From Clostridia bacterium (GTDB lineage Bacteria; Bacillota; Clostridia; Christensenellales; CAG-138): a stretch of DNA of 37,101 nucleotides. Shown in pieces: positions 3,639 to 36,430 of this stretch. The notes under the pieces were generated by a model. The model worked only from the letters and a program-made list of their open reading frames with translations. It had not been told where the DNA came from and made no database searches. Made by a program: the position numbers and the translations under genes. The stretch is taken from assembly GCA_045576895.1 (NCBI GenBank), contig JAZNHI010000015.1:1-37101 (forward strand), given 5' to 3'. The first letter of the stretch is position 1. Each line of letters starts with the position of its first letter.

Positions 3639-5427
3639 GGATCAGCACAGCTTTGATTCGGCGAACGCCGCTTGACGAGGCTTCTTCCTTTTTGATCTCA
3701 AAGCGTCCGAGATCGCCGGTATTCTTTGCGTGCGGACCGCCGCAGATCTCCTTTGAGTACTTACCCATCGTATAGACCTTGACTTTTTCGCCGTACTTGC
3801 TTTCAAAGAGACCGATCGCGCCTTGCGCCTTCGCTTCTTCGACGGTCATTTCCTCGCAGGTGATCGGGACCTTCGCCGCAATCGCTTCGTTCACAAGGCG
3901 TTCGACTTCCTTCAGCTCCTCCGGCGTAACCTTTCTGCCGAAGCTGAAATCGAAGCGCAGACGCTCCGCGGTGATGTTGCTGCCCTTCTGCGAGACCGTG
4001 TCGTCGTTCAGAACCTTCCGAAGCGCCGCCTGCAGAAGATGCGTTGCGGAATGCAGCGCTGCAGTCGCTTCGCTGTTGTCCGCCAGGCCGCCCTTAAAGC
4101 GCTGTTCGGCGCCCGCTTGGGATTTCTTCTGATGCTCCTCAAACGCGGCGGCAAAGCCCTTCTCGTCAACCGTAACGCCCTTTTCCTTCGCAAGTTCCAC
4201 GGTGAGCTCGATCGGGAAGCCGTAGGTGTCATAGAGGTGGAAGGCAGATACGCCGTCGATCGCCTGACCGTCGAGGTTCGCAATCAGCTTGTTGAATTCC
4301 TTCAAGCCCTTCTTCAGCGTGTCGGCGAAGCGGTTTTCCTCCTTGCGAAGCTCGGAGAGGATCTTTTCACGGTTGTCAATGAGCTCGCTGTAGACCTCGC
4401 CGTACTGGTCGATGATCTTTTCCGCGATCGTGCAGAGCGCATAGCGCGGCATGTTAAGCTGCGACGCAAAGCGGATGCTGCGGCGGATGAGGCGGCGGAG
4501 GATATAGCCCTGGTCGACGTTCGACGGGGTCACGCCGCGCTGATCGCCGAGGATGAACACGATGCAGCGGGTATGGTCCGCAATGATGCGGAACGCGCGT
4601 GTCGTTTCGGGATCGTCTTTATAGCCCTTGTGCGAAAGCTCCGCGATGAGCGCGATGATGCCGGAGAACGCGTCGGTGTCAAACACGCTTTCGACGCCCT
4701 GCAGCGTGGCGACCGTGCGGTCGAGGCCCATGCCGGTGTCGACGTTCTTCTGCTCGAGCGGTTCAAAGACACCGTCCGCGACCTTGTTGTACTCCATGAA
4801 GACGTTGTTCCAGATTTCGAGGTACTTGCCGCAGTCGCAGCCTGCCTTGCAGTCGGGACCGCATGCGGGTCTTCCGGTGTCGTAGAAGATCTCGGTGTCC
4901 GGACCGCACGGACCGGTTTGTCCCGCGGGACCCCACCAGTTGTGCTTCTTCGGAAGATAGACGATATGCGAGGGATCCACGCCCATTTCGACCCAGCGGT
5001 CGTGTGCCACTGTGTCGCGCGGCGCGTCCTTGTCACCCTCAAAGCAGGTGAAATACAGCTTGTCCTTCGGAATACCGAGCCATTTTTCGTCGGTCAGGAA
5101 TTCCCACGAAAACGCAATGCTTTCTTTCTTGAAATAGTCGCCGAGCGACCAGTTCCCGAGCATTTCAAAGAACGTGCAGTGCGAGGAATCGCCGACTTCG
5201 TCGATGTCGCCGGTGCGGACGCATTTCTGCACGTCGCAAAGCCTTTTGCCCTCCGGGTGTTTTTCGCCCATCAGATACGGTACGAGCGGATGCATACCCG
5301 CCGTCGTAAAGAGCACGGTCGGGTCATTTTCGGGGATCAGGGAGGCGGAGGAGATGACCGCGTGTCCCTTGGACCGGAAGAAGTCCAGATACAATTGACG
5401 CAATTCTTTTGCGGTTAATGAACGCAT
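3631..5427 (-). CDS. alaS: alanine--tRNA ligase, short form (598 aa) lacking the C-terminal C-Ala domain
   Basis: MRSLTAKELRQLYLDFFRSKGHAVISSASLIPENDPTVLFTTAGM... is a class II AlaRS catalytic core. The editing domain is present (HSATHLL, CGGPH) and ends at ...GVRRIKAVLIHD*. AAAGGAA RBS lies before the ATG at 5427. Confidence 0.85.
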   Translation of the reverse strand: MRSLTAKELRQLYLDFFRSKGHAVISSASLIPENDPTVLFTTAGMHPLVPYLMGEKHPEGKRLCDVQKCVRTGDIDEVGDSSHCTFFEMLGNWSLGDYFKKESIAFSWEFLTDEKWLGIPKDKLYFTCFEGDKDAPRDTVAHDRWVEMGVDPSHIVYLPKKHNWWGPAGQTGPCGPDTEIFYDTGRPACGPDCKAGCDCGKYLEIWNNVFMEYNKVADGVFEPLEQKNVDTGMGLDRTVATLQGVESVFDTDAFSGIIALIAELSHKGYKDDPETTRAFRIIADHTRCIVFILGDQRGVTPSNVDQGYILRRLIRRSIRFASQLNMPRYALCTIAEKIIDQYGEVYSELIDNREKILSELRKEENRFADTLKKGLKEFNKLIANLDGQAIDGVSAFHLYDTYGFPIELTVELAKEKGVTVDEKGFAAAFEEHQKKSQAGAEQRFKGGLADNSEATAALHSATHLLQAALRKVLNDDTVSQKGSNITAERLRFDFSFGRKVTPEELKEVERLVNEAIAAKVPITCEEMTVEEAKAQGAIGLFESKYGEKVKVYTMGKYSKEICGGPHAKNTGDLGRFEIKKEEASSSGVRRIKAVLIHD

Positions 5428-9680: not shown

Positions 9681-9856
9681 GCGGCGAAAGCCGCATATCG
9701 TATTTGAATGTCAAATATATCGTGCTTGCGTAGGCAAGTATCTCGTTCTGCTTCAGCAGAATATCGCTGTATGATGCCGGGCAGCGGCGATATGCCCTGC
9801 AGGCGTGATATACCTTCGGCACGATATACCTTCGGCACGATATGCCCTGCGGGCAT
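9681..9856. repeat. array of about 9 short hairpin modules tagged ATATCG / CGATAT (two converging half-arrays)
   Basis: Unit coordinates are given in the finding for this region. It includes an identical 16-mer, GATATACCTTCGGCAC, at 9807-9822 and 9823-9838. Confidence 0.85.
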
Positions 9857-9861
9857 GCGCT

Positions 9862-11583
9862 TTACTGTCCGTAGCGGTTCTGCTGGACCTGCTTCGAGGT
9901 GAAGCCCTCCTTTTCGAAGATGCGGACCCATTCCTTCAGACGGACGAGGAATTCCTCGTTGTTCGGCGTCTTGTCCATCATGGAGACAAGGTTTTCCGTG
10001 ACGTCGCCGGTGCCACCGTTTGCAAGCATCCGACGCAGCATGCGTACACCGTCGAGCTCGGTTTTCGTGAGCAGCAGATCGTCGCGGCGCGTGCCAGACT
10101 TATAGACGTCGATCGCGGGGAAGATGCGCTTTTCGGAGAGCTTGCGATCCAGATGGATCCCCATATTGCCGGTGCCCTTGAATTCCTCGTAGACGATGTC
10201 GTCCATGCGGCTGCCGGTTTCTACGAGTGCAGTTGCGATCACGGTCAGACTACCGCCGTTTTCGATGTTGCGCGCGGCGCCAAAAAAACGCTTGGGCTTG
10301 TGCAGCGCGCCCGGATCCATACCGCCGGAAAGCGTGCGGCCGGTCGGCGGGATCACGAGGTTATAGGCGCGCGTGAGACGGGTGAGGGAGTCCAAAAGGA
10401 TCACGACGTCGCGTCCGTCCTCGACCAGACGCATGGCGCGCTCCTGTACCATTTCCGCAATGCGCGTGTGATGCTCGGGAAGCTCGTCGAACGTAGAAGC
10501 AACAACCTCGCCTTTGATGCTGCGGCGCATGTCAGTGACCTCCTCGGGACGCTCGTCGATCAGCAGGACGATGAGATGCGTGTCGGGATAGTTTTCGGTA
10601 ATGCCGTTTGCAATCTGCTTCAGAAGTGTCGTTTTGCCTGCCTTCGGCTGCGAAACTATCATGGCGCGCTGACCCTTGCCGATCGGTGCGATCAGGTCGA
10701 TCAGCCGCACGGAGAGGTTGTTGACACGTCCCGGCGTTTCGAGCGTATAGCGCTCGTTCGGGAAGATGGGAACGAGATCCTCGTAATTGACGCGGTTCAC
10801 GGCATTCTCATCCGGATCCTTACCGTTCACGCGATCGACGTACAACAGCGCTTCGTATTTGTCGCCTTCACGGCGCGCGCGGGTGCGTCCTTCGACGAAA
10901 TCGCCGTTTTTCAGATTGCAGCGGCGGATCTGCGCGTTTGCGACATAGACGTCGTTGGGACCGGAATCGTAGTTCGAAACGCGAAGAAAGCCGTAGCCCT
11001 CCATGATCTCCAGAACGCCGGCTGCCGTGCCGGTTTCGGGAAGCTGTATAGGTTCTGCGAGCTTTTGTTCGCCGTCCGGCGCATGATACTGCGGACGGTT
11101 GTTTCCCTGACGGAAATTGCGGTTCCGGTTTTGCGGACCGTTTTGCTGACGGTGGTTATTCCGCGAATACTGCTGACGCTGTTCGACGTTCGTGTGCTCC
11201 TGCTGTTTCTCGGCTTCAGACGTTGACAGATCGGTCGCAGAGATCGGTTGAGATGCTTCGGCATGCGGCAGTTCTGGAGACTGTTCGAGTGCAAGAACAG
11301 GGGCCTCCGGCGCAGATTCCTTCTGCACGGGACCGGTCTGCTGCATTTCGTCCGTTTTTGCCGGCCTGCCGCGCTTTCGCTGCTGCGGCGCTTTCGCTTC
11401 GGATGCAGGCGTATCGGTTTTCTCTTTTGCCGGTCTGCCGCGCTTTTTCTTTTCTGGCGCAGGCGCCTGCAGCATCTCGATGAGCTGCGCTTTTTTATAT
11501 TTGCGGTAAGAGGGAATACCGTGCTGTTTTGCAAGATTATACAGCTCGGCGATCGTCAGTGTTTCCAGTTCGGTTTGATTCAC
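9862..11583 (-). CDS. rho: transcription termination factor Rho with a long N-terminal insertion domain
   Basis: Rho_N ([29 protein letters not shown]), CSD-like RNA-binding domain, and a RecA-type ATPase ([18 protein letters not shown]). GTG start at 11583 is preceded by GGAGG with a 6-nt spacer. The track's ATG at 11700 adds non-homologous sequence. Confidence 0.9.
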
Positions 11584-11659
11584 AAATAGCCTCCGATATA
11601 GAATTGATTGCCTTGGGATTGCAGTAAAAGGATATTGAAATGCGGATTTGCTGATACCT

Positions 11660-11688
11660 ATTTTATGGGTGAAAAACCGACTTGTCAA
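11660..11688 (-). promoter_or_regulatory. sigma-A-type promoter for rho
   Basis: Reverse strand TTGACA (11688-11683), 17-nt spacer, TAAAAT (11665-11660). Confidence 0.55.
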
Positions 11689-11782
11689 GCGCTTCGACAA
11701 AAATAGCGAAGTTTCGTTTCCGATTTTAGCGTAGGAACAGAATGCGGTGCATACAATGCATCAAAGACAGGGAGGTGTCTCT

Positions 11783-18727: not shown

Positions 18728-20485
18728 TTATCCTTCACCATCGTCGCTTGGCTGCGGCGTTTCCGGTTTCGGCGTATCGGGCTTGGGCGTTTCAGGCGCA
18801 GGCGTATCCGGCTTCGGCGTATCGGGTTCCGGCGTATCGGGTTCCGGCGTATCGGGCGCGGGCGTATGGGGCGCAGGGGTCGTCGGATCGGGATCATCCG
18901 ATCCATGCGAGGTCGGCGTAGGCGTCGGGTCGGACGGTCCGCTTGTTGCGGAGCCGGAAGGGCTCGGCGAAGCGTCGGGACCGACGATATAGACCGCGGA
19001 GAATGCTTTATACGTGGAGGTATCCAGCTTCTTGCGCTCCACAAGTTCACCGTTCAGATAGTATTCCACATAACTCTGCCAGACGGAACCCTTCTGATTT
19101 TTGACGAGCTGCTTCTTGTAGCCCGGCTTTTTGCTTTCATCGACGCGGTATTCCACTTCACCGGTCGGACTCAGCGTTTTGATCTTTTTGGGATCCGGGA
19201 TACGGATCTCGTCATACTGTCCGTTCGAATCCTCAATGATCGGGATGCCCCAAATCTCCATCGTCAGCTTGCCGGCTTTCTTATAATCCGAATTGTCGAC
19301 GTACGAGATAATGATAATATCGGACTTACTGCTGTTTTGGAATTTGAAGTCGATGATATTGCCGATCGAGTTGATGGTCGCGTCGCGTCCCTTCGAAACA
19401 TAATCGACGGGCATCGAGTGATTGCGTCGTTCAACGATCTTCATGTCCGCCATGACCGCTGCATTATAGAGCGTGCTGGAAAGCTGACAAACGCCGCCGC
19501 CGTATTGCTTTTCATGTGCACCGGCAACGTAAGCGGTTGCGACCTTCCATCCGTTCGCCTTATTGCGGACACCGAGCGTGCCGTTTGCAGAGAACGTTTC
19601 GCCGGGATGCAGGATGGTACCGCTGATCAGTCCTGCCCCTTTGAAGATGTTATACTTACGATTGTTGATGCTCTTGTGATAATCGGTCGTCATCGTGCCG
19701 CGCAGGACATATTTGTTCTGAATATCTTCGAGCTTGACTTCTGCGGGGGATTCCTTGATCGGCGCGGAGATCGTATCGCCGGGTTTTGCATCCATCAGCG
19801 AGGCGAAGAGCTGCTCGCGATCGACGGCACGCCCCGGAACATCGCTGATAAAATCGATCTTGTTTTCGTCTTTGTTATAGGAAACAGAGGCGTCGATGGG
19901 CTTCGTATCGTTTGCATCTGCAAAAACGTTTATCTTCTCACGGAGCGAAGCTTCATCGAATGTCAAAAGAACGGGGAAATCCTGTCCGGACGTTCTGATC
20001 CGTTCCACTTCGGCAGAAACCGCCTCGAAGCCGTTGTCCTCGCGAACAAGCGCAAATGCTTCGTTAAGCGCATCGTCGAGATTGTCGATCGTTGCGATCG
20101 TTTCGCCGGAGAACGATTCGGACACTTCGCCGAATGAAACCTCAACGCGCATGTTCTGCCTTGCCTGCTCGAGCGTGGAAAGCACAGCACTGCGTGCTTG
20201 ATCAAGCGTCATACCGCCGACGGGTACTCCGTTGACGGTAACGCCTTCCAGCATGGTAGTGCGCTTCAGAATCGCGTTGAGCTCTTCGCGGTGCGGATCG
20301 GGTTCCGGCGTCACGATAGAGATCTCTTCGGACCCGCCGTGCACGGGTTGGTTCGGATCGACCAGCTCGCCGGTGCGGGGGTTGTAATCCACGTTCGTTT
20401 TGTCGTCCGTCTTTCCGCATGCAAGGCAGAGAATCAGCATCAAAGCGATCAGCGGAAACAGCCAGAAATAATGATTCTTCTTCAT
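18728..20485 (-). CDS. VanW-domain lipoprotein with G5 domain and Pro/Thr/Asp-rich C-terminal repeat tail
   Basis: Lipobox (LILCLACG). VanW core (PGETFSANG...YGGGVCQLSSTLYNA...RNHSMPVDYV). G5-like segment (EVEYRVDESKKPGY...). Tail of (PDTPx)n. Confidence 0.85.
   Translation of the reverse strand: MKKNHYFWLFPLIALMLILCLACGKTDDKTNVDYNPRTGELVDPNQPVHGGSEEISIVTPEPDPHREELNAILKRTTMLEGVTVNGVPVGGMTLDQARSAVLSTLEQARQNMRVEVSFGEVSESFSGETIATIDNLDDALNEAFALVREDNGFEAVSAEVERIRTSGQDFPVLLTFDEASLREKINVFADANDTKPIDASVSYNKDENKIDFISDVPGRAVDREQLFASLMDAKPGDTISAPIKESPAEVKLEDIQNKYVLRGTMTTDYHKSINNRKYNIFKGAGLISGTILHPGETFSANGTLGVRNKANGWKVATAYVAGAHEKQYGGGVCQLSSTLYNAAVMADMKIVERRNHSMPVDYVSKGRDATINSIGNIIDFKFQNSSKSDIIIISYVDNSDYKKAGKLTMEIWGIPIIEDSNGQYDEIRIPDPKKIKTLSPTGEVEYRVDESKKPGYKKQLVKNQKGSVWQSYVEYYLNGELVERKKLDTSTYKAFSAVYIVGPDASPSPSGSATSGPSDPTPTPTSHGSDDPDPTTPAPHTPAPDTPEPDTPEPDTPKPDTPAPETPKPDTPKPETPQPSDDGEG
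18756..18880 (-). repeat. in-frame 15-nt tandem repeat (about 8 units) encoding the PDTPx pentapeptide tail
   Basis: GGCGTATCGGGTTCC-type units repeat with period 15, and two units are identical. They translate to PDTPEPDTPEPDTPKPDTPAPETPKPDTPKPETP. Confidence 0.9.
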
Positions 20486-20573
20486 ACAGTTCTTTTCCTT
20501 CTTCATTGATGATATCATTGTACACGCTTTTTTTTAAAAAACCATCCCTTTTGAAAAGCATTTACTAATAAGT

Positions 20574-34173: not shown

Positions 34174-34836
34174 TCAACAATCGAGACGCTTGAATGCATT
34201 CCGACACCAAAGGAACACGGAGGAGAACGCTTCGTCAAAATCGGAATCATCGGTGATTCCTGCAAGGTCGAGCATGGCGCGGTCTTCGTCCGAAACGACA
34301 GAATACAGATCCCGTTTTGCAAGCACAAATGTGCCTGTTTCCAGATAGTGCAGATTCTGAATCAGGAAGAACAGGTCCTTTGAACGGGCGCGCAGCTTTT
34401 CGATATTTCTCGGTTGATCCGAATGGATATAGCGGTGGCACAGGGCGTGGTACAGATTCCCGAGACTCAGCTTGCAGTAATTGATCTCATCCGCGCGTGT
34501 CGCTTCCGGCAGATAATCGGACAGCGTTCCGAACAGATCCTTTGTCGTATGCTTGATCTGGCAGATTTCAAGCGGGTTCCAACGCAGCATTTCTTCACGT
34601 CCGCAGATAAAACCGCAGGACAGCTCGAAATGTCCGATCCGTTTCAGAATGGATCGGTATACGTCCATATCCGCAACGCCGAACCGATCCAAAAGGACCA
34701 TCACGTCGATATCGCTGCGTTCATGTGCCTCTCCGCGGAGCCAGCTTCCCTGCAGACCGATATACAGGAGACGATCGGAAAATGCCTCCTTGCACGCAGC
34801 GATCAGTTCATACAAATATTTGTTCAGATCAATCAT
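34174..34836 (-). CDS. nucleotidyltransferase-domain protein (Pol-beta superfamily, ANT-like) with helical C-terminal domain
   Basis: GLQGSWLRGEAHERSDIDVMVLL matches the G[SG]-x10-DxD nucleotidyltransferase motif. Confidence 0.75.
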   Translation of the reverse strand: MIDLNKYLYELIAACKEAFSDRLLYIGLQGSWLRGEAHERSDIDVMVLLDRFGVADMDVYRSILKRIGHFELSCGFICGREEMLRWNPLEICQIKHTTKDLFGTLSDYLPEATRADEINYCKLSLGNLYHALCHRYIHSDQPRNIEKLRARSKDLFFLIQNLHYLETGTFVLAKRDLYSVVSDEDRAMLDLAGITDDSDFDEAFSSVFLWCRNAFKRLDC

Positions 34837-35288
34837 AATTGCCTCAGATTCATAACAAGCTCGATTTCGTCTTCGTCCTCGACGCCGGTAGCGGAAAACC
34901 CTTTGCGCTCATAGAGCCTTCTTGCTGCGGAATTGTTTTTGTTGCAGGTCAAAGCAACCCGGTCCGAATCACCGAACGGTTTTGTGCGGATATACGCAAT
35001 CACACGGTCCAAAGCTTCGCTGCCGTAGCCGCGTCCCTGTTCCGATGCGTCGATCATCATATGCCAGATATCGTATTCAGGAATATCATAATCATAAATC
35101 ACCATGACGTACCCGACCATTCTTCCCGCCGCATAGATGCCGAACGGCTGACACTGATTTCTGTAAACGTACGCCTGCGCAAGGCTTCGTATCGGATGAG
35201 AAACGAACTGATCCTGTTCAGGCGCAAGCCTGAGATTGAACGCATCTATGAAGTTTTCTTCCGTGATTGGTCTTAACTCTGTTTTCAT
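34833..35288 (-). CDS. GNAT family N-acetyltransferase
   Basis: MIDASEQGRGYGSEALDRVIAYI...NSAARRLYERKGF is the acetyl-CoA binding motif A. ATGA overlap with the nucleotidyltransferase gene. Confidence 0.85.
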   Translation of the reverse strand: MKTELRPITEENFIDAFNLRLAPEQDQFVSHPIRSLAQAYVYRNQCQPFGIYAAGRMVGYVMVIYDYDIPEYDIWHMMIDASEQGRGYGSEALDRVIAYIRTKPFGDSDRVALTCNKNNSAARRLYERKGFSATGVEDEDEIELVMNLRQL

Positions 35289-35382: not shown

Positions 35383-35560
35383 AAGTGTTATTTGCACTGT
35401 CGGCGCAAGTGATATTTTTGTCGCAATCGGCAGAAGTGATGTTTCTCCCTGCGGTCACAGTGATGAAAAGTGTTCCGCTCACGCACGAATTGCACATCAC
35501 TTGCGAAGCAAACATCACGCCGAAAGGCGCATCACGTTCCGCAGGAGCGGATCACATCGT
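35383..35560. repeat. array of hairpin+ATCAC modules: 3x AGTGAT then 4x ATCAC (diverging half-arrays)
   Basis: GTGAT at 35409, 35436 and 35460. ATCAC at 35496, 35514, 35531 and 35551. Adjacent small hairpins include TTGC-GAA-GCAA, GCC-GAAA-GGC, TCCGC-AGGA-GCGGA and TGTCG-CAAT-CGGCA. Confidence 0.85.
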
Positions 35561-35562
35561 TG

Positions 35563-35602
35563 AAAAAAGCGTCTTTTGTCTATCGACAAAAGACGCTTTT
35601 TT
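35563..35602. terminator. strong bidirectional intrinsic terminator (serves the methyltransferase gene on the - strand)
   Basis: AAAAAA-GCGTCTTTTGTC-tatc-GACAAAAGACGC-TTTTTT, a perfect 12-bp stem with flanking A and T tracts. Confidence 0.85.
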
Positions 35603-35652
35603 CATGTAAAAGTACACTAAACCATAGAAAGAACGCGTAAAAGGCATTCCGG

Positions 35653-36249
35653 TCATTCTGCCCGGCAAAGCACATTGATCCAGCGTTCATCCGCCCTGTC
35701 AGGCCGAGCGTCGCCGGTTATCCACAGATCGATCTCATGAAAACCGCCTGTTTCCTCGAGCAAACTGCGGAGCGATGTTTCCGTAAAGTCCGAAAAGACT
35801 CTGCCGTTCCTGTCTCTTTCAGTCTCCCCATATTTGAAGGACGCATAAAAAACACCGTCCGTTTTCAGAGCGCGGCGGATCAAGCGCAGTACCTGGGGCA
35901 GTTCGGCCTTTCTTGTATGCAGGATAGAAGCGCAAGCCCAGACGCCGTCGAAAGTGTCCACGTAGTCCAATTCCTCAAAACGCAGGCAGCGGACGGGACA
36001 GCCGACTCGCTTATGGGTATAATCGCACAATTCCGGGCATCCATCCACAGCAAGCACGCAATTACCCTGCTGTGCAAAATAGAGGGACGCGCCGCCTGCC
36101 CCGCAGCCGAGATCCAGGATGTTGCCGCCGGAGGGCACATAGGTCAGGAATTTGCGGTAAAGGTCCGACATATCCACGGTCTCTGTTCGTTCAATAAACG
36201 CCTCCGCGTTTTCTTGATACCAATGCAGCGTATCATTGGGATTGGGCAT
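35653..36249 (-). CDS. class I SAM-dependent methyltransferase (Methyltransf_11/25-like)
   Basis: ILDLGCGAGGASLYFA is motif I, with GVFYASF downstream. AAGGAGGAG RBS. Confidence 0.85.
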   Translation of the reverse strand: MPNPNDTLHWYQENAEAFIERTETVDMSDLYRKFLTYVPSGGNILDLGCGAGGASLYFAQQGNCVLAVDGCPELCDYTHKRVGCPVRCLRFEELDYVDTFDGVWACASILHTRKAELPQVLRLIRRALKTDGVFYASFKYGETERDRNGRVFSDFTETSLRSLLEETGGFHEIDLWITGDARPDRADERWINVLCRAE

Positions 36250-36283
36250 AGCGTCTCCTCCTTGGTCCTGATCCTATGGGATG

Positions 36284-36312
36284 ATTATACACTAATTACG
36301 CTGCGAAAGCAA
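36284..36312 (-). promoter_or_regulatory. candidate promoter for the methyltransferase gene
   Basis: Reverse strand TTGCTT (36312-36307), 17-nt spacer, TATAAT (36289-36284). Confidence 0.5.
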
Positions 36313-36349
36313 CAAAAAACCTCTCTTGCACTGGTAGACAAAAGAGGTT
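36313..36349 (-). terminator. intrinsic terminator after tRNA-Trp
   Basis: Reverse strand AACCTCTTTTG-loop-CAAGAGAGGTT (11 bp including one G.U) followed by TTTTTTG. Confidence 0.7.
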
Positions 36350-36356
36350 TCTTTGA

Positions 36357-36430
36357 TGGCAGGGGCAGAAGGACTCGAACCCTCAAGAACGGTTTTGGAG
36401 ACCGCTATGTTACCATTACATCATGCCCCT
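36357..36430 (-). tRNA. trnW: tRNA-Trp (anticodon CCA), 3' CCA encoded
   Basis: Reverse strand AGGGGCATGATGTAATGGTAACATAGCGGTCTCCAAAACCGTTCTTGAGGGTTCGAGTCCTTCTGCCCCTGCCA. The 7-bp acceptor stem is AGGGGCA/TGCCCCT. The anticodon loop is CTCCAAA. The T-loop is GGTTCGAGTCC. Confidence 0.9.

Follow-up and report, generated by a model that had tools for sequence, protein, structure and literature searches.

Repetitive extragenic palindromes (REP), bacterial interspersed mosaic elements (BIME) and REPINs are extragenic sequences of proteobacteria at gene 3' ends, made of small palindromes with a short conserved tag; they occur in both orientations, vary between strains and form several families per genome. 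For the REP/BIME sequences of enterobacteria, a role as transcription boundary and in shielding 3' ends has been proposed. BOX in Streptococcus pneumoniae and Correia in Neisseria are intergenic repeats built of modules whose number varies; they are predicted to fold strongly, and they affect the transcription of their neighbours. Integron attC sites lie on the 3' side of gene cassettes, depend on structure over sequence, carry complementary boxes in two arms, and work as one folded DNA strand. The hairpin array described here occupies positions 35385-35604 of a 37,101-nt stretch of a Clostridia bacterium assembly (contig JAZNHI010000015.1; the whole stretch is called the window), and the evidence supports it well as one decayed copy of a dispersed, bipartite non-coding repeat of ~180 nt in ruminant-gut Oscillospiraceae/Clostridia.

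Among the 4227 Rfam families compared, the best match to the array, outside hits that overlap its terminator, is Gut-1 (RF01706), at 21.6 bits for 35489-35562 (-) and 15.5 bits for 35383-35474 (+), both below the gathering cutoff of 50; at that threshold the whole window yields tRNA only. Gut-1 was described by Weinberg et al. in 2010 from human-gut sequences and was found in no sequenced organism, and its authors judged the motif to be certainly RNA on the basis of covariation (PMC2864571). Its Rfam model consists of three variable hairpins joined by GUGAAAU and covers one half only; the flanks in the published Stockholm alignment run from a stop codon or tRNA through a terminator and three to four GUGAUAU+hairpin modules to four hairpin+AUAUCAC modules (PMC2864571). 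In the cmscan alignment, three window hairpins and their GUGAU linkers fall on the three stems and linkers of the model, and the window has at least three hairpins parted by a linker, GUGAU(G/C/A), of the GUGA(A/U)AU type that defines Gut-1. We found no later work on Gut-1 in the literature and none on hairpin arrays in Firmicutes.

The original prediction, made from the window sequence, had described three GTGAT sites followed by four sites of the complement ATCAC, each beside a small hairpin, and all of these are present. On the + strand GTGAT lies at 35409, 35436 and 35460 and ATCAC at 35496, 35514, 35531 and 35551, which puts 7 sites within 147 nt, compared with 105 on both strands of the entire 37,101 nt. 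The hairpins named there are TTGC-GAA-GCAA (35501-35511), (C)GCC-GAAA-GGC(G) (35518-35529) and TCCGC-AGGA-GCGGA (35539-35552) on the + strand, together with TGTCG-CAAT-CGGCA, which contains one G·T pair. The halves had been said to diverge, but they converge, each strand reading GTGAT first and ATCAC second. The array does lie between the terminator of a methyltransferase gene, a 20-bp hairpin at 35561-35604, and the promoter of a GNAT gene at 35351-35323. Both neighbours, the S-adenosylmethionine-dependent methyltransferase (35653-36249) and the GNAT acetyltransferase (34833-35288), are on the minus strand, which as the strand of the upstream genes is the sense strand of the array. The array runs to ~35385, its end being marked by a degenerate last tag, ATAACAC (minus strand), and the GNAT promoter is the border of its intergenic space, outside the repeat. 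Comparison of copies places the terminator within the repeated element, as its first module. The prediction was thus right that the array is real, but it included neither the terminator nor the association with tRNA and tmRNA genes nor the match to Rfam.

Three tags followed by four reverse-complement tags occur at two places in the window, in this array and at 9681-9856, whereas 400 first-order Markov simulations gave a mean of 0.0075 per window; the looser pattern of three and three is not rare, at 0.2 per simulated window. A k-mer scan found no third array in the window. A cluster at 18750-18880 (GGCGTATCGGGTTCC-like units) is a coding low-complexity tandem repeat in a 596-aa minus-strand open reading frame (ORF) at 18728-20518, not an array. 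The presence of a 74-aa ORF across the array (35385-35609) and the 18-nt period of the canonical first half, which equals six codons, would suit a chance cluster of pentamers or the remnant of a decayed gene, but this explanation has a negligible probability and is already refuted by the homologues. These number more than 100 and vary by indels of 1-4 nt, the window linker spacings of 20, 17 and 18 disrupt any reading frame, and no ORF overlapping the array has a Pfam match. A coding reading was rejected on the latter ground and on the frame breaks among homologues. With compensatory stem changes found as well, the prediction of a repeated non-coding element in place of a gene is borne out.

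The exact 23-mer ATCACTTGCGAAGCAAACATCAC, which spans hairpin hpB (Table 1), occurs at 55 genome loci in ~45 species-level metagenome-assembled genomes (MAGs); each genome has 1-3 copies, which frequently lie at the end of a contig. The carriers are labelled Oscillospiraceae, Faecousia, Flemingiibacterium, 'Ruminococcaceae' and Clostridia, and come mostly from goat, sheep, buffalo and cattle. A search with a second, independent motif, GCGGAACACATCACATCAC from the centre of the element, gave 48 metagenome loci, and the window-specific left half had no match in the metagenome scan. Canonical copies measure 176-186 nt and keep a constant order of modules. In the direction of the window minus strand, this order begins with a terminator of variable stem, followed by (G/C)AACGATGTG and an anchor hairpin, GTTCCGC-loop-GCGGAAC. 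Three GTGATG(T)+hairpin modules come next, and then a centre, TGAGGAT GCGGAAC AC, that holds a second copy of the anchor 3' arm. The unit closes with ATCAC ATCAC and three hairpins parted by (T/A)ACATCAC, often with a TTTACA or TTGAAA -35 box; the second half counts three or four ATCAC+mini-hairpin modules. The entry linker CAACGATGTG is complementary to the ACATC of the canonical centre. The terminator has a different stem in the homologues and always stands directly before AACGATG. Among 30 copies, the first half (23-mer removed) has an identity of 0.78 and the second half 0.72, while the terminator reaches 0.55 and the 80 nt downstream of the element 0.48. Some MAGs carry near-identical copies in different contexts (contigs L009/L012 and L028/L047/L051; contigs in the comparison have the prefix L). 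The 140 unique modules between GTGAT linkers have stems unrelated to those of adjacent modules, and two contigs (L042 and L056) have arrays of at least nine modules running in one direction.

The window copy is worn. Position 35552 is T in the window and A in the other 22 aligned copies and most metagenome contigs; this T creates both the fourth ATCAC, which is therefore present as predicted but specific to the window, and an A·A mismatch in the anchor, where pair 11-26 is UA in the 22 copies and AA here. The window hpC has lost one pair, one tag of the centre is gone, and the second half has only 0.55 identity to the other copies.

Changes between copies preserve the hairpins. Homologues differ by indels of 1, 2 and 4 nt and by compensatory stem changes, and in 23 aligned copies 9 of the 45 predicted pairs show double changes (for example, UA in 12 and GC in 9, or CG in 17 and GC in 5). 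One hairpin reads GCGTCC-TTCG-GACG in L001 and GCGCC-TTTC-GGCG in the window. Many of the pair changes are transversion flips (CG to GC, UA to GC), for which no wobble intermediate is possible. The nearly pure Watson-Crick pattern fits strong selection on very short stems, and it also fits correction of quasipalindromes by template switching at the DNA level (PMC7202029).

The wobble pairs indicate which strand folds. When stems are oriented by linker, there are 544 Watson-Crick, 4 G·T and 9 A·C pairs and no bias appears, but this way of counting is misleading. Oriented by the sense strand of the element, the same question gives 510 Watson-Crick, 9 G·T and 3 A·C pairs, and two of the three A·C pairs belong to the window's own decayed hairpin. 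On the same strand, the independent set found with the centre motif yields 628 Watson-Crick pairs against 10 G·T and a single A·C (binomial p ~0.006), or about 8 G·T to 1 A·C when shared ancestry is discounted. Tandem G·A/A·G pairs in hpD are kept on the sense strand in about a third of copies. The excess of G·T over A·C and the G·A pairs of hpD together indicate that the maintained fold is that of the strand running in the same direction as the upstream gene. Mutation that is biased between the strands could contribute to the excess of G·T, although it is unlikely to produce 10:1.

Loops on the GTGAT strand are TTC, TTT and TGC, and those on the ATCAC strand are GAA, AAA, GCA and GTA, closed by C-G. 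The latter resemble the mini-hairpin DNA of the d(GCGAAGC) type with GNA loops (reviewed in PMC13037366): hpB reads GCGAAGC on the + strand, and C-GAA-G, C-GCA-G and C-GTA-G triloops dominate the ATCAC strand. The d(GCGAAGC) hairpin is, however, a physical motif and not a genetic element, and the other strand of the array modules reads C-UUC-G. RNAalifold also predicts pairing of linkers between the halves. As to function, the prediction had speculated on an insulator, a protein-binding platform or a recombination scar. Linker spacing is 17-27 nt in the window and 18-26 nt in canonical copies, out of helical phase, and this variation favours a folded single strand over a duplex bound by protein.

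Table 1. Features of the array, its flanks and the related array (window coordinates)
Feature	Position	Strand	Remarks
Related array	9681..9856		ATATCG x4 then CGATAT/GTGATAT x4; between BspA-LRR gene terminator and rho 3' end
Sigma-70-like promoter of GNAT gene, TTGAAA-17-TATAAT	35351-35323	-	11/12 matches
Second half	35385..35464	-	ATCAC 35464-35460 and 35440-35436; ATATCAC 35415-35409; last tag ATAACAC 35391-35385
hpF, TTGC...GCAA	35408-35392	-	Second half
hpE	Between ATCAC 35440-35436 and ATATCAC 35415-35409	-	Two C·A mismatches on minus strand
hpD, TGTGACCGCAGGGAGAA	Between ATCAC 35464-35460 and 35440-35436	-	Tandem G·A type
Centre, TGAGCGGAACACTTTTC	35465..35481	-	Second copy of anchor 3' arm GCGGAAC; ACATCAC decayed to ACTTTTC
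hpC, degenerate, GTGCAATTCGTGCG	35482..35495	-	Canonical TGCGC-TTC-GCGCG
First-half modules	35496..35535	-	GTGAT tags 35535-35531, 35518-35514 and 35500-35496, with hpA and hpB
hpB, TTGC-TTC-GCAA	Between tags 35518-35514 and 35500-35496	-	+ strand reads GCGAAGC
hpA, GCGCC-TTTC-GGCG	Between tags 35535-35531 and 35518-35514	-	First half
Anchor hairpin, GATCCGC-TCCT-GCGGAAC	35536..35553	-	Canonical GTTCCGC...GCGGAAC; A·A mismatch 35552/35537
Entry linker, CAACGATGTG	35553..35562	-	First tag-like segment; nearly invariant in 23 aligned copies
Bidirectional intrinsic terminator	35561..35604	both	20-bp perfect stem with A-run and T-run; from inverted-repeat search
38-nt box, GCGTTCTTTCTATGGTTTAGTGTACTTTTAC	35606..35643	-	Between methyltransferase stop codon and terminator; separate dispersed repeat

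Each canonical copy starts immediately after a strong terminator with A-run and T-run, and a promoter often lies 3' of the element. A tRNA or tmRNA gene on the same strand lies just upstream in 26 of 58 genome matches and 24 of 48 metagenome matches, with at least 14 tRNA species involved. The downstream genes are varied small accessory genes, encoding GNAT proteins, a nucleotidyltransferase, a kinase and a four-helix-bundle protein, among others. Viral contigs scanned with two linker patterns gave 217 chains, almost all of them coding tandem repeats or chance; three passed the hairpin filter and two look genuine, and the arrays are not phage-typical.

The array shows presence/absence polymorphism, for which the prediction had proposed a comparison of closely related strains. 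Such relatives were found through the identical methyltransferase only (three contigs, L001, L002 and L003), since neither the window GNAT nor the window Rho is on record in an exact-protein look-up. In L001 a homologous array is present, preceded by a terminator whose stem differs; L002 and L003 have the same methyltransferase without the array, and have another terminator and other downstream genes at that site. In ruminant-gut metagenome contigs of 85-95% identity, matches are limited to 35479-35572 and 35606-35643 and the flanks are unrelated, so these two segments are dispersed repeats. In L001, a 25-mer, GACA(A/G)AGGACCCGAACGCCGCGGCG, stands both after the array (3879-3903) and after the next terminator (4527-4551).

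Whole blocks also recur in different places. The window tRNA-Trp gene (36360-36430, -) is followed by its own terminator, the methyltransferase, and then the terminator and array. The tRNA-Trp terminator (CATCAAAGAAACCTCTTTTGTCTACC...GAGAGGTTTTT, window 36305-36352) is repeated after the methyltransferase in L002 (1000-1060) and L003 (770-830), and for this reason the promoter, methyltransferase and box (35653-36300) look like a cassette inserted after the tRNA. The gene for a four-helix-bundle protein forms a block of ~700 nt with the terminator, array and promoter before it, and this block stands after tRNA-Gln in L006 but after tRNA-Lys in L007 and L016. On its left side homology starts precisely at the tRNA CCA end; in other pairs of copies homology ends 20-25 nt past the last linker. 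In L016 the gene after this block resembles spoIVA. The element thus sits at junctions of variable gene cassettes, and the unit may behave as a movable or recombining module that marks the tRNA-proximal edge of cassettes of small genes. No transposase, integrase or recombinase was seen beside the inspected intact or truncated copies. Of the traits of a MITE, no terminal inverted repeat (TIR) beyond the linkers was seen, nor any target duplication at the L006, L007 and L043 boundaries, in comparisons without a clean pair of empty and filled sites. In L040 (~100-1950) the array breaks off after hpD and gives way to unrelated DNA, in what looks like an insertion into the array; that DNA has one gene for a 243-aa protein and another resembling a PIN-domain toxin, the latter preceded by a small partner.

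It is uncertain whether the 38-nt box at 35606-35643 belongs to the element. It recurs in L051 (213-243) in another gene context and in many metagenome contigs with differing flanks. A related motif, GGTGTACTTTTT...GTTCTTAG, lies upstream of the terminator in L015.

Matches to Gut-1 proper, at 50-59 bits, were found in L020, L049, L050 and L223. In L020 they form an inverted pair directly beside a terminator. This array and the GTGATG family have in common the anchor hairpin (TCGTTCC/GGAACGA) and a copy of GGAACGA in the centre, and the odd L020 hairpin ATTGCGACCAACGGGAGCAAT (GCGACC..GGGAGC) corresponds to the window hpD. Within what is therefore a wider Gut-1 superfamily, the window array represents a divergent subfamily. 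Arrays of the same plan but with linkers of other families occur in the same genomes (TATGGAAT/ATTCCATA, TAATGAAGTC/GACTTCATTA, TGATAT/ATATCA and GTGAAAT/ATTTCAC). The linker of the second half is the reverse complement of that of the first in each bipartite array (four linker families, with more by eye), and the half with the C-free linker comes first in 28 of the 28 arrays detected strictly. Further bipartite arrays are seen at L005 6478-6643, L024 2190-2380, L050 1272-1484, 2539-2705 and 4017-4237, L054 4278-4370 and L027 4417-4522, with TATGGAAT/ATTCCATA, TAATGAAGTC/GACTTCATTA, GATAT or TGATG linkers; several are beside terminators, and one in L005 follows a duplicated fragment of a tRNA-Trp 3' end.

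The array at 9681-9856, between the convergent BspA-LRR and rho genes, had been assigned to the same family as the present one. The two do share Gut-1 as best Rfam match outside hits on the adjacent terminators (16.4 bits at 9785-9848 for the former, cutoff 50), the plan of linkers and hairpins in two inverted halves, and a GTGATAT-type linker. The array at 9681-9856 has the opposite order of halves, however, and lacks both the GTTCC anchor hairpin and the centre, so that it is only a distant relative and not close kin. The neighbouring Rho (9862-11700, -) has 612 aa and a long N-terminal extension with an AT-hook match before the Rho_N and RNA-binding domains.

It appears possible, and this is the reading that we tentatively prefer, that the array is a folded boundary element acting in cis, similar to REP/BIME, which backs up the terminator or shields a 3' end from either direction. 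It would act as a folded single strand, the sense strand, at the border of two transcription units. What folds could be RNA, made by polymerases that have passed the terminator, or DNA, when replication leaves the same strand single-stranded. In either case the strand would collapse into a row of very stable mini-hairpins of 4-8 bp, and because each half has linkers complementary to those of the other, the same compact block would be met from either reading direction. This block may then reinforce or insulate the terminator and protect the 3' end upstream of it.

Several observations weigh against such a boundary role. Since the terminators look strong, read-through should yield little RNA. 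The RNA evidence consists of unstranded contigs from RNA libraries, in which the depth is 5-40 for the array but hundreds to thousands for the neighbouring tRNA; the array is at ~1-10% of the depth of the adjacent tRNA contig, with DNA carry-over possible. A few contigs join the tRNA, the terminator and the array start, one chicken-gut metatranscriptome contig covers a whole array, and the only metatranscriptome with this methyltransferase has the array-less allele. G·U accounts for 1.6% of the pairs in stems, a low share for a functional RNA. The linkers are otherwise invariant, and their single-base variants GAGAT (5 copies) and ATCTC (3 copies) are uncompensated in the other half, leaving linker-to-linker pairing unproven. 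A purely structural role also leaves the sequence conservation of the linkers and the first half unexplained, and the window copy itself may be inactive given its several disruptive changes.

The array may instead be a single-stranded DNA site of a mobile or recombination system, like REP sites with their tyrosine transposases (RAYT), IS200/IS605 ends or integron attC, with no role in transcription; we hold this to be somewhat doubtful. Each linker and hairpin would be recognised in folded DNA of the lagging-strand template, and the arrays would be selfish or serve as cassette junctions. Near-identical copies in different contexts of one MAG, the presence/absence polymorphism, and homology breaks at the tRNA CCA end and 20-25 nt past the last linker, with different accessory genes beyond, are consistent with mobility, as is the existence of several linker families in one genome, as in REP families. 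The almost perfectly palindromic stems and the C-GAA-G/C-GNA-G loops on one strand, of the d(GCGAAGC) type (PMC13037366), point to folded DNA, but only half of the modules have a GNA loop on any one strand. The hairpin sequence changes from module to module, unlike in REPs, and the lack of a visible transposase or recombinase beside inspected copies, or of TIRs and target duplications, also argues against this explanation. A more specific form, which we consider quite unlikely, is that Gut-1-type arrays are not small RNA genes but junction sites of an undescribed gene-cassette system of gut Oscillospiraceae. The folded strand, with its terminator, anchor hairpin and linker/hairpin modules, would then be the site at which small promoter-bearing cassettes insert or exchange after tRNA/tmRNA genes, with GNAT, nucleotidyltransferase, methyltransferase and four-helix-bundle genes, among others, as cargo. 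Such sites would be analogous in role to attC but have a different grammar.

Two other explanations concern a binding partner. An independent small RNA gene, as Gut-1 is entered in Rfam, could use its single-stranded GUGAU linkers, exposed between the hairpins, to bind or sponge a protein or RNA. The rating of Gut-1 as RNA by its authors from covariation (PMC2864571), the G·T bias on the sense strand and the metatranscriptome contig across an array agree with this, and the sequence-conserved linkers suggest a specific binding partner. We nevertheless regard it as unlikely, since the array is placed between a strong terminator and the next promoter with no conserved promoter of its own, RNA depth is low, and a sponge needs no second half of complementary linkers. 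An antisense small RNA that ends at the bidirectional terminator is disfavoured by folding of the sense strand, with 10:1 G·T to A·C. A platform of repeated sites on duplex DNA, such as iterons, integrase arm-type sites or sites for nucleoid proteins, would account for a short linker repeated directly and then inverted, and for the proximity to tRNA genes, where integrative elements insert. The probability of this is slim: the linkers are spaced irregularly and out of helical phase, compensatory changes that keep hairpins would be pointless for duplex binding, and the same array follows many tRNAs with its boundary at the CCA end, not inside the tRNA.

Whichever function applies, Gut-1, an orphan since 2010, gains named hosts here in the Oscillospiraceae/Clostridia MAGs of the ruminant gut. 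Its Rfam model represents one half of a unit that has two halves and, before them, a terminator. The unit follows a strong placement rule, directly after terminators and especially those of tRNA/tmRNA genes, and there is evidence on which strand folds. Together these points make function testable, and they raise the possibility that a curated small RNA is in truth a DNA element, either REP-like or a cassette junction. In annotation, such arrays account for spurious short ORFs and for assembly breaks in these genomes.

Compared with the described systems, the array is most like Gut-1. Both have variable mini-hairpins and a conserved GUGA(A/U)AU-type linker, come from gut metagenomes, and are ordered as terminator, first half and inverted half. 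The window family differs in its linker, GUGAUG(U), and in scores far below the cutoff, and whereas Gut-1 was reported from the human gut without an organism, the present copies are from Oscillospiraceae MAGs of the ruminant and chicken gut and are tied to terminators and tRNA/tmRNA genes. CRISPR arrays have repeats of 23-50 nt and unique non-palindromic spacers; the present array has repeats of 5-7 nt, palindromes of 11-19 nt in place of such spacers, and two inverted halves. BOX and Correia are likewise modular and intergenic, with variable internal modules and a strong predicted fold, but their modules are conserved over 45-60 nt, Correia has TIRs and target duplications, and neither has the grammar of linker and mini-hairpin. 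The attC sites share the position at cassette junctions, the retention of structure and the complementary short boxes in two arms. Their R''/R' cores (RYYYAAC/GTTRRRY) are absent from the array, which has many perfect mini-hairpins where attC has one bulged hairpin, cassettes with their own promoters, and no integrase nearby. No RAYT (Y1 HUH) gene was noticed beside the inspected copies. REP/BIME units have a conserved sequence including the stem, which the array modules do not; in the array the stems differ from unit to unit, and the units are much shorter, at 11-19 nt, and follow a fixed order with a terminator as its anchor. The array shares with REP/BIME the location at 3' ends, the tagged palindromes in both orientations, the multiple copies, the variability and the several families.

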